A stretch of 32,000 bases of DNA from Candidatus Thorarchaeota archaeon (GTDB lineage Archaea > Asgardarchaeota > Thorarchaeia > Thorarchaeales > Thorarchaeaceae): the NCBI GenBank assembly GCA_008080745.1, contig SHMX01000005.1, forward strand, positions 1-32,000, given 5' to 3'. Positions 11,860-15,066 of the stretch are shown piece after piece. Both the position numbers and the translations under genes were made by a program. The notes beneath the pieces are model-generated. The model did no database searches. It was given only the letters and a program-made list of their open reading frames with translations, and had not been told where the DNA came from. Every line of letters starts with the position of its first letter. Within the stretch, counting starts at the first letter, position 1.

Positions 11860-11968
11860 CGTTTTTTCCAAATATTAATGCGTGGTTCCGGAGATAACCT
11901 CTAAAACTGATTATCTACCATAATCGTTGACTGCATTGTACACCGGTGCTACTTGTGGAGGAGAGAAG

Positions 11969-12946
11969 TTGGACCAGATTAAAGGTGTAGTTTCGGATAA
12001 GGGCGTACCCGAGGGTGAGGAACCTGAAACCGTTGTATGCCCTGAGTGTGGCTCCACATCTGTTGTGGAGGATAACACACGTGGTGAACGTGCGTGTGCT
12101 GAATGTGGGCTTGTTCTATCAGATCACAGAATCGACACAGGCGCTGAATGGCGGGCTTTTAGTGCTGAAGAATCAGATTCACGTAGTCGAGTAGGAGCAC
12201 CTATGCGATATACGGTACATGACAAAGGACTTTCTACAGTGATAGACTGGCGTGATAGAGATACATCAGGAAAGAAGCTAAGCCCAAATCGTCGGTCACA
12301 AATATACCGTCTTAGAAAATGGCAAATCCGATCTCGCGTTCATAGTTCGGTTGATAGAAATCTAGCCCAGGCTATGTCTGAACTTGAACGATTAGCCTCT
12401 CAACTTGGGATAACCAAACCTATTCGCGAACAGGCCGCATTACTCTATCGGAAGGCCATTCAGAAGAAGCTTGTTCGTGGTCGATCTATCGAGGCTATGG
12501 TAGCTGCTACCTTGTATGCGGCGTGTCGAATACGTCAGAAACCGCGCCCTCTTGATGAGGTTGCTGATGCTTCACGTATTGACAGAAAGAAGCTTGGTCA
12601 ATGCTATAGACTTCTGTTGCGTAGTTTGAAAGTTAGGATTCCCCTCTCCAATCCAGTGGATTATATCTCCCGCTTTACATCTCAACTTGAACTTTCAAGT
12701 TCTGTTCAATTGAGAACAATCGAGATTCTTCACAGAAGTCGCGATATCGGTCTCACCATTGGTCGTGATCCTCTTGGCCTGGCTGCTGCGGCAATCTATG
12801 TTGCTTCTATTATGTTAGATGAACGCCGAACCCAACGAGAGATTGCAGAGGTAGCTAGAGTGACCGAGGTAACCGTTCGAAACAGATACAAGGAGATAGT
12901 TAAACGGTTAAAAATAGATAGTATGGGACTTCCTAGTTCACACTAA
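11969..12946 (+). CDS. tfb: Transcription initiation factor B (paralog 1)
   Basis: CPEC...CAEC zinc ribbon, GAEWRAF B-reader, two cyclin repeats, TQREIA..VTEVTVRNRY. GGAGG RBS favours TTG 11969 over 11927. Confidence 0.96.
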   Translation: MDQIKGVVSDKGVPEGEEPETVVCPECGSTSVVEDNTRGERACAECGLVLSDHRIDTGAEWRAFSAEESDSRSRVGAPMRYTVHDKGLSTVIDWRDRDTSGKKLSPNRRSQIYRLRKWQIRSRVHSSVDRNLAQAMSELERLASQLGITKPIREQAALLYRKAIQKKLVRGRSIEAMVAATLYAACRIRQKPRPLDEVADASRIDRKKLGQCYRLLLRSLKVRIPLSNPVDYISRFTSQLELSSSVQLRTIEILHRSRDIGLTIGRDPLGLAAAAIYVASIMLDERRTQREIAEVARVTEVTVRNRYKEIVKRLKIDSMGLPSSH

Positions 12947-13007
12947 CCGTATACCATACTTGGTAAGATGCACCTACATGAGAATGCGTTTGAATCTCTA
13001 CTTTAGG

Positions 13008-13346
13008 TCATCTTCTGCCGCCCTGGAATCCCCAATCAATCGCTATTTGCTCTTCTGGGAATCCGAGTTTGCCAAGAACTTTACCAATTGTTCCCCTATG
13101 GTCTCCCTGGAGTTCAATATGGCCATGTTTGGCTGCTCCGCCACATGCAAGTTTGGATTTGAGCTTAGAAGCGAGTTCGCCAAGGTCAATGTTCTTATCA
13201 AAGCCTTCGACGACTGTATACATTCTGCCCCATTTTCGGCGTTCGACAGTTACCGTAATTCGGGCTTCTTCCTGTGCAATTGTTTCGCAGACACAGAGGT
13301 CTACTGGCAATCCACAATTTGGACATATTCCGCCTTCGTCTGACAG
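13008..13346 (-). CDS. sui1: Translation initiation factor aIF1 (SUI1), apparent CTG start
   Basis: ICPNCGLPVDLCVC N-terminus, LKSKLACGG and IELQGDHR motifs. The only plausible start upstream of the first Cys pair is CTG at 13344-13346, which follows an in-frame TGA. Confidence 0.92.
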   Translation of the reverse strand: MSDEGGICPNCGLPVDLCVCETIAQEEARITVTVERRKWGRMYTVVEGFDKNIDLGELASKLKSKLACGGAAKHGHIELQGDHRGTIGKVLGKLGFPEEQIAIDWGFQGGRR

Positions 13347-13482
13347 ATTTCACTTACTCCTGATTTTTTCTATTAGCTAAAGCTGTTAGCTGTATTGCAA
13401 TTATACCATTAATAAGTTCTGTCTTGGTATCTAAAAACACATTTGAAAAGAATAAAGTATACATTTTTGCGAAGAGGATTCT

Positions 13483-15066
13483 ATGACTGACACAGTTCTG
13501 ATTGTAGATGCACTAAGTGCTGGCTCAGGACAACGTACCAGCTCTCGGGATTCTATAGGATGCGGACCTCGAACTATTGCTGGTGTCTTTGAACTATGTG
13601 ATATACCCTGTGGAATTCGTCGGGTAGAAGATGTCTTATATAAAAAAGGTACAACTCGGGGTTTTACTCACTTAGCAATCAGTGCTATGTCTATGGATTT
13701 TCCTGTAGTTGAACAAGTAATCAAGATGTGGAATCGCACACGGCCCCAGGGGCGTATTCTTCTAGGAGGCCCCATCTCCGGTGAACCTCAGAGAATGGTT
13801 TCACTTCTTCGACCCGATGTTCTCATAATTGGTGAAGGTGAGGCCACATTGGAGGATTTGATTAGTTCAGATTATTTGGATTCCTCTATCGACCTCTCTA
13901 TGATACAGGGTATTGCATTCAAAAAGAGGAAAGATGTCGTTGTGACATCGCGCCGTCCTGCAATATCAGAAGAGAAGCTATCAGACTACTACAAACCCTC
14001 CACTTTTCGTGTAATGGACTATTCAGGTTACCAAGCAAGTCGTGTCTATGTTGAGGTGGTCAGAGGGTGTTCGAACTTTCAGAGAACGAAGATCCGACTA
14101 CCTGATGGACGAGAGTGTTATGATTGTGGGTCGTGTGATTCCGTAGATCCAACCATGCGGTTAGATTGTCCCGAAGATATACCTCCTGGCTGTGGATTTT
14201 GTAGTGTTCCTGCAACATGGGGGTCTCCTCGAAGCAGAAGTGAAGATGCAATTGTGAGTGAAATTGAAACTCTACTTGATCTTGATGTTCATCGGATTGT
14301 CTTAGAGGCACCAGGCTTTCTAGACTATAAGCGCGGTTCTTATCCATTGACAACTCCCTGTTCGCCGCCTGCGAATATAGACGCTATATCCAATCTCTTA
14401 TCCAGAATAAACTCTATTCCTCAGATGAAAGATGGAATTGCTCATCTCTCTGTTGAGAATATCAAAGCATGTCTATTCTCTGAGCCTGTGGCAAAGATGT
14501 TCTCAGATATGTTACCCAGTATATCCCCCAATATAGGGATGGAAACTGGCTCAGAACATCATGCTCGCACAATTGGAAAATGCAGTACTCCCCAAGAGGT
14601 CTTACAAGCAGTGAGTCTTGCTAAGAAATTTGGATTGAATCCATTCGTCTATTTGATCTATGGTCTTCCTGGCGAGAACATTCTCACAGTAAAAGAAAGT
14701 GTAGATATGGTAAAGAAATTGGCCGATTTGAGTGTAGAGAGAATCATTCTCTATGGATTCAGACCTCTGCCAGGTTCAGCATTCGCCGATTTCGACCCTC
14801 CTACTCATGACGATCCAATAAGCCAAGAACTTAAACAAGCAGTAAGTCGAGTAAATCGAGAAAGAAAATATGCATATCTTGGTCGCAAAGTAAAAGCCAT
14901 TGCTGCAGAAGCCTCTTTGACTCATCAGGGATATACGATGTTTTATCCTCTGAAGGAAGGACCTCTTATCACAGCTTTAGGAGGTTATTCTCCTGGTACT
15001 TTGGTCGATATTGAAATCGAAGAGGTACTTAGCGACGGGCTTGTACGTGGTACCGTTATAAAATAA
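13483..15066 (+). CDS. B12-binding-like/radical SAM protein with possible C-terminal TRAM domain
   Basis: GGP...IIGEGE N-domain, EVVRGC...GCGFC, GMETGS and YLIYGLPGE motifs, beta-rich C-terminus. Confidence 0.85.
   Translation: MTDTVLIVDALSAGSGQRTSSRDSIGCGPRTIAGVFELCDIPCGIRRVEDVLYKKGTTRGFTHLAISAMSMDFPVVEQVIKMWNRTRPQGRILLGGPISGEPQRMVSLLRPDVLIIGEGEATLEDLISSDYLDSSIDLSMIQGIAFKKRKDVVVTSRRPAISEEKLSDYYKPSTFRVMDYSGYQASRVYVEVVRGCSNFQRTKIRLPDGRECYDCGSCDSVDPTMRLDCPEDIPPGCGFCSVPATWGSPRSRSEDAIVSEIETLLDLDVHRIVLEAPGFLDYKRGSYPLTTPCSPPANIDAISNLLSRINSIPQMKDGIAHLSVENIKACLFSEPVAKMFSDMLPSISPNIGMETGSEHHARTIGKCSTPQEVLQAVSLAKKFGLNPFVYLIYGLPGENILTVKESVDMVKKLADLSVERIILYGFRPLPGSAFADFDPPTHDDPISQELKQAVSRVNRERKYAYLGRKVKAIAAEASLTHQGYTMFYPLKEGPLITALGGYSPGTLVDIEIEEVLSDGLVRGTVIK

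Follow-up and report, generated by a model that had tools for sequence, protein, structure and literature searches.

Probable CUG initiation of the aIF1 gene in a Thorarchaeota archaeon and a possible feedback through start-codon stringency

At which codon does translation of the initiation factor aIF1 begin in this uncultivated archaeon, and could that codon let the factor limit its own synthesis? The question arises from the minus strand of the window (the whole 32,000-nucleotide stretch of Candidatus Thorarchaeota archaeon DNA that we analyzed, positions 1 to 32,000 of contig SHMX01000005.1), where the initial annotation had proposed that the aIF1/SUI1 gene starts at CUG and is autoregulated through it. 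The strand reads AGGAG (13361-13357), TAAG, TGA (13352-13350), AAT and CTG (13346-13344), continued by the codons TCA, GAC, GAA, GGC, GGA, ATA, TGT, CCA, AAT, TGT and GGA and by TTG (13310-13308), and all coordinates of that proposal proved correct on re-reading. Translation reproduced the absence of ATG, GTG and TTG between the in-frame TGA and the CPNC motif, which holds the first two cysteines of the zinc knuckle, and the sequence after TGA-AAT-CTG encodes the conserved aIF1 N-terminus SDEGGICPNCGLP. The start in the list of open reading frames, TTG 13310, yields 100 amino acids and drops the CPNC half of the N-terminal motif, as had been claimed. We re-defined the aIF1/SUI1 coding sequence as 13008..13346 (-), with a CTG start, 112 codons and a TGA stop at 13010-13008. 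Judged by sequence comparison, translation of aIF1 very probably begins at CUG 13346-13344 on an mRNA led by a Shine-Dalgarno (SD) motif.

The CTG initiation codon (13344..13346, -) aligns with the GTG or CTG of 66 family genomes and has no canonical in-frame start upstream. The in-frame TGA stop (13350..13352, -), two codons 5' of the CTG, closes the frame. On its 5' side the frame consists of the codons TAG, CTA, ATA, GAA, AAA, ATC, AGG, AGT and AAG before the TGA; a start upstream in frame and an upstream ORF were both rejected, as the frame holds no start codon there. The SD motif AGGAG (13357..13361, -) is located 10 nt 5' of the CTG, and its complementary basis is the host 16S 3' end, GGATCACCTCCT, i.e. 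...GATCACCTCCT. The spacing from GGAG to ATG in the host genome peaks at 8-10 nt, and the 10 nt between GGAG/AGGAG and the aIF1 start is thus the usual spacing of this genome. The initial annotation had also named GTGA (13353-13350) as an SD-like motif; this part did not stand, since no more than 3 nt separate GTGA from the CTG and relatives have GTAA instead. We also rejected ATA 13328-13326 (Ile7) as the start, as it is 28 nt away from the SD and the five codons preceding it are under protein-level selection. A putative TATA-like promoter element, TTATTAATGGTATAATT (13399..13415, -), would imply a leader of about 35-45 nt, and a TTATAT(G) motif occurs approximately 60-75 nt 5' of the start in most family loci. 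No conserved RNA structure was detected around the SD and the start (RNAalifold -0.05 kcal/mol, covarying pairs absent), and no unusually stable fold was detected in the leader (single-sequence z-score of +1.1). The CTG is presumably read by initiator tRNA-Met with the anticodon CAU.

The CTG-started protein matches the SUI1 family in Pfam (PF01253, 3.7e-18, 66.2 bits versus a cut-off of 25.5) and passes the curated threshold of the NCBIfam model NF002096 (126.8 bits versus a cut-off of 98). Positions 3-101 of the 102 positions in the NF002096 profile correspond to residues 6-103 of the CTG-started protein; since this alignment reaches residue 6, the family N-terminus lies upstream of TTG 13310. 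Zinc knuckles have been described for many archaeal aIF1 proteins (PMC6237735). Here the N-terminal knuckle of four cysteines, C8-P-N-C11 ... C18-V-C20 (13287..13325, -), is complete only if initiation takes place upstream of TTG 13310, and 13 diverse Asgard aIF1 sequences all have C8, C11, C18 and C20. The predicted product, Met-Ser-Asp-Glu-Gly-Gly-Ile-Cys-Pro-Asn-Cys..., would retain the four-Cys knuckle intact, and the N-terminal peptide expected from a CUG start would be (Ac-)SDEGGICPNCGLPVDLCVCETIAQEEAR or MSDEGG.... The ORF is intact, and a profile search of the host genome (3.16 Mb, 98% complete) identified a single copy of the SUI1 gene. Nearly all of 24 family loci share the gene order TFB - aIF1 - radical SAM; TFB was not found in one of them (L018).

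For comparison we gathered aIF1 loci from 67 further species of the host's family, in which the named relatives are 'Candidatus Thorarchaeota archaeon' MAGs; 66 of the species have readable 5' ends. The codon aligned to CTG 13346 is GTG in 50 of the 66 and CTG in the other 16, which belong to seven genera, and it is never ATG. An alignment of sui1 5' regions had been named in the initial annotation as the check on its proposal, and it gives a conserved non-AUG codon (GTG, CTG or ATT) in the 67 family species. A GGAG(T) motif is located 8-12 nt 5' of the start in every family locus, a stop codon immediately precedes the start in six species, and the aIF1 proteins of the relatives are 112-114 aa long from the aligned start codon. 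Codon 2 encodes Ser in 64 of the 66 species (AGY in 46, TCN in 18); since Ser is kept via both codon types, codon 2 must be translated and is under selection at the protein level. Altogether, the aligned GTG and CTG codons, the optimally spaced SD, the selection on the codons that follow, the stops that precede and the identical assemblies described below strongly support the proposed CUG initiation.

The history of the codon within the family is less clear-cut. A tree of two flanking proteins (779 columns) mixes CTG and GTG genera and implies six changes on the best tree, with a weak backbone. The AU test failed to reject a single CTG clade (p = 0.358), and the tree therefore does not establish a repeated origin of CTG inside the family; the missing ATG could in part reflect inheritance. 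A search for aIF1 protein positions that co-vary with the start-codon state found one conservative column only (I/V at position 101), which is probably phylogenetic. Two local variants were also observed. One further species (L017, genus g3) has GGAG, 11 nt and then ATT, followed by CAG, GAA and GAT, where the nine other members of its genus have GTG; a TTG in the same frame, 15 codons further upstream, is an alternative start candidate in this species. Three genomes of one genus carry an in-frame GTG within a AAGGTGGA motif, four codons upstream of the CTG, which may be an SD or a start.

We estimated start usage in the host genome from the excess of SD-preceded codons over background, using 1981 ORFs of at least 200 codons. 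The SD-led starts are approximately 71% ATG, 20% TTG and 8.5% GTG, with at most 2% CTG, a value within noise. No genome-wide enrichment of CTG starts was observed: SD-preceded CTG candidates without a nearby canonical start numbered 8 (including aIF1), compared with 4-12 for control codons. The divergent radical-SAM neighbour of aIF1 has ATG in about 22 of 24 family loci, and the convergent TFB neighbour has TTG or GTG across the 24 loci and never CTG. Among the other initiation factors of the host, aIF1A starts with TTG, aIF2-beta and aIF2-alpha with ATG, and aIF2-gamma with GTG. The near-cognate start is specific to aIF1 and is no genome-wide habit.

Several smaller observations concern the same genome. 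Weaker canonical starts are present on several of its initiation-factor genes, and a non-canonical start on none but aIF1; the aIF1A gene (contig C2, 151518-151709 region) appears to start as GGAGGT, ATATT, TTG, and aIF2-gamma (contig C2, 498369-498620 region) appears to be GTG-started. For the TFB gene of the window (11927-12946, +), the longest ORF runs from TTG 11927, and the real start is probably TTG 11969, where GGAGGA (11957-11962) followed by TTG aligns with the SD and TTG/GTG of relatives. A 306-codon ORF on contig C1 (-), beginning LSRLDQLLEEEKFVVTGEITPPHG, has CTG as its sole SD-positioned start candidate (aaaaGGAGagctttaatCTG), and a canonical start is lacking within 10 codons. This CTG could be another genuine start, or the match may be due to chance. 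The initiator tRNA-Met gene maps to contig C2, ~495,920-496,045 (-), within L257, and has an intron in the T-arm region, and it was missed by ARAGORN, the calls of which include two tRNA-SeC and one 'tRNA-Stop(tta)'.

Three other accounts of the start region have to be weighed against CUG initiation. Public annotation places the start at TTG 13310 (13308..13310, -), the first canonical start in frame, and the exact 100-aa protein is present in NCBI nr (window 13011-13310, -), where it is missing the first 12 residues and with them two of the four zinc-ligand cysteines, C8 and C11. However, this TTG is not preceded by an SD and encodes Leu13 of the CGLP motif, for which TTG is used in only 31 of the 66 relatives, the others having CTT, CTC, TTA, CTA or CTG. 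The 12 codons before it are conserved as protein, with synonymous variation, the family profile extends 5' of it, and a start at this point would delete two of four invariant zinc ligands; we thus consider translation from TTG 13310 very unlikely. The missing ATG might instead be ascribed to an error of sequencing or assembly, given that the host genome is metagenome-assembled, to a private mutation, to a pseudogene, or to a frameshift by which GTG 13353, the first codon of an overlapping 51-codon frame, reaches the N-terminus. Two public contig sets match window positions 12900-13600 exactly, with word depths of 46 and 131 and zero variants, and both give the same CTG at base 13346, a position that the initial annotation had singled out for such a check. 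Both sets belong to a single marine-sediment study and bear on sequence identity only, not on expression. The source sample may be their origin, and the stronger argument against error is therefore that from the relatives. An ATG in close relatives would have pointed to an assembly error or a private mutation; none occurs in the family and CTG recurs in 16 species of seven genera, which rules out both. The intact, single-copy ORF argues against a pseudogene, and the frameshift is contradicted by the position of GTG 13353, only 3 nt from the SD, and by the GTAA found in relatives. Taken together, this group of explanations is extremely improbable.

A dedicated initiator-like tRNA with a CAG anticodon could also read the CUG, in which case the start would not be weak. 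We considered this account since tRNA detection is incomplete in this genome (ARAGORN reports 39 tRNAs, and introns cause misses). However, one canonical initiator tRNA is present, with A1:U72, three G:C pairs beside the CAU anticodon and an intron, and no CAG, CAC or AAU/UAU variants of the initiator anticodon arm were found at up to one mismatch. The lack of genome-wide enrichment of CTG starts also speaks against such a tRNA, and we give this account almost no weight.

To describe the distribution of such starts, we applied a conservative rule to 169 Asgard species, by which the start was taken to be any ATG, GTG or TTG that lies in frame in the 25 codons 5' of the knuckle. Under this rule, 46 species have an aIF1 gene without a canonical start (15 CTG, 21 ATT, 2 ATC, 7 ATA and 1 other), and the remaining species have GTG (76), TTG (7) or ATG (40). 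The non-canonical class spans 9 of the 26 Asgard families, and plain ATG is found in 13 of the 26. The SD before a non-canonical start is always 4 nt or longer, and before the 15 CTG starts it is always 5 nt or longer, a result that is partly circular, as the rule picked the near-cognate codon with the best SD, and that carries little weight. An outgroup sample of 74 non-Thorarchaeota loci, which covers many archaeal phyla and a few other Asgard MAGs and in which the starts of model organisms were seen, has ATG on aIF1 in about 62 loci. As predicted from these sequences, the near-cognate aIF1 start is recurrent yet lineage-restricted.

What such a start could mean for the factor depends on the known activity of aIF1. 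According to work on S. solfataricus and P. abyssi, initiation complexes at codons other than AUG become less stable in the presence of aIF1: with S. solfataricus aIF1, 30S complexes form on AUG and not on AUU, and P. abyssi aIF1 holds the initiator tRNA back from full accommodation (PMC4705826, PMC6237735). Lower initiation is expected from GUG and UUG (PMC4705826, PMC6237735), and aIF1 stimulates the binding of SD-containing mRNA (PMC6237735). We assume by homology that the Thorarchaeota aIF1 likewise binds 30S and rejects non-AUG or non-initiator complexes. Since aIF1 destabilises non-AUG complexes, a near-cognate start on its own gene should give negative feedback. When abundant, aIF1 would reject the CUG complex on its own mRNA and its synthesis would fall; when scarce, it would let the CUG complex through and its synthesis would rise, which would result in homeostasis. 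With a strong SD at the optimal spacing and an unstructured leader, recruitment of 30S would be efficient, and codon-anticodon proofreading might thereby be left as the limiting, regulated step. However, because aIF1 also promotes the binding of SD-containing mRNA, a feedback could on balance have either sign. The initiation site of the gene is both suboptimal and conserved, being GTG, CTG or ATT and never ATG in the 67 family species. A feedback loop is consistent with the way in which near-cognate starts (CTG, ATT, ATA, GTG) recur on this one gene across the phylum. The statement as a whole, a single CUG-started aIF1 gene with feedback through start-codon stringency, seems to us evenly poised between right and wrong.

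The same sequence facts are accounted for if the CUG merely sets a low constitutive level of translation for a factor that is needed in modest amounts, with no feedback by aIF1. Many archaea use ATG on aIF1, and its presence in about half of the Asgard families and in most of the outgroup loci indicates that a weak start is not required for aIF1 biology; the TTG of aIF1A and the GTG of aIF2-gamma are weaker canonical starts as well. On the other hand, expression could be lowered by a weaker SD or by TTG, which accounts for approximately a fifth of host starts, whereas aIF1 keeps a strong, well-spaced SD and never has TTG in the family. Instead, the gene repeatedly takes start codons that are otherwise essentially unused (CTG, ATT, ATA), and these belong to the codon classes that aIF1 reportedly rejects (PMC4705826). 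A low constitutive level, the main rival reading, is a rather doubtful explanation, which nevertheless deserves serious attention.

Feedback through start-codon stringency would have two precedents. Bacterial infC, which encodes IF3, has an AUU start and is subject to translational autorepression (Butler et al. 1987, as reviewed in PMC4705826), and the eukaryotic eIF1 (SUI1) gene has an AUG in a poor Kozak context and shows negative autoregulation (Ivanov et al. 2010, as cited in PMC4705826 and PMC6237735). As in infC, the Thorarchaeota gene for a fidelity factor itself begins at a near-cognate codon of the kind that the factor discriminates against, an SD precedes the start, and relatives keep the unusual codon; ATT or ATC even serves as the aIF1 start in other Asgard families. 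In contrast to infC, the Thorarchaeota codon is CUG, with a mismatch in the first position, rather than AUU, and the trait is confined to certain archaeal lineages instead of being near-universal. IF3 is, moreover, unrelated to aIF1, and feedback is established for infC and proposed for the Thorarchaeota aIF1. The eIF1 case is closer in protein terms, as eIF1 is a homologous SUI1-domain protein that has the same part in proofreading and whose own mRNA carries a suboptimal initiation site. However, eIF1 retains an AUG whose context is poor for scanning ribosomes, whereas the Thorarchaeota aIF1 has a non-AUG codon placed by an SD. Compared with a canonical archaeal aIF1, such as that of Methanocaldococcus (with the codons ATG, CCA, GAA, ATT and TGT at its start), the Thorarchaeota protein shares the family, the zinc knuckle, the length and the M-x-x-I-C-P-x-C-G-L-P pattern, but ATG is found there and only GTG, CTG or ATT in the Thorarchaeota family.

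Among archaea, the Asgard group is the one most closely related to eukaryotes. We tentatively suggest, leaning somewhat to the doubtful side, that the aIF1 mRNAs of Thorarchaeota (CUG/GUG), other Asgard lineages (AUU, AUA, CUG) and some Hadarchaeota sense aIF1 activity and form a third, undescribed case of autoregulation by stringency, that such a loop is present in all three domains, and that an Asgard-type aIF1 loop might be ancestral to that of eIF1. A full-text literature search turned up reviews on archaeal initiation and on recoding, none of which mentions that archaeal aIF1 genes have non-AUG starts or are autoregulated, although a description may still have been published. If the proposal is true, the self-limiting logic of IF3 and eIF1, based on a poor start site, would extend to archaea, in the lineage nearest to eukaryotes, and it would offer a testable handle on the stringency of archaeal initiation and on how this stringency is set. 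For annotation, gene callers restricted to ATG, GTG and TTG truncate or mis-start aIF1 in such genomes. The 46 of 169 Asgard species without a canonical aIF1 start, approximately a quarter of those sampled by a conservative count, are therefore open to the same mis-call.

The start regions of individual lineages show considerable variety. In the largest sampled Asgard family (f9, L216-L241), a conserved ATT, replaced by ATC in two loci, is located 8-9 nt after the SD-like AGGTTGTGA, and the TGA inside AGGTTGTGA closes the aIF1 frame. The equivalent codon in one genus (L212-L215) is ATA, or possibly a GTG within AAGGTAGTG. In six other Asgard families (L026, L075, L078, L247-L249, L251) aIF1 appears to be ATA-started, mostly 9 nt after AGGAGG, AGGAG or GAGGT. 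One Asgard family (L244-L246, L251) has ATG, TTG or ATA at the same aligned position, depending on the genus. The pattern AGGTG, 7 nt and CTG is found in a further family. Two Heimdallarchaeota MAGs have GTG on aIF1, and Methanomethylicia (L102-L104, L106) have TTG after AGGTGA. One Hadarchaeota MAG (L140) has GGAGGT, 9 nt and CTG, with a stop two codons upstream, and a second MAG, from Hadarchaeales (L156), has ATG.
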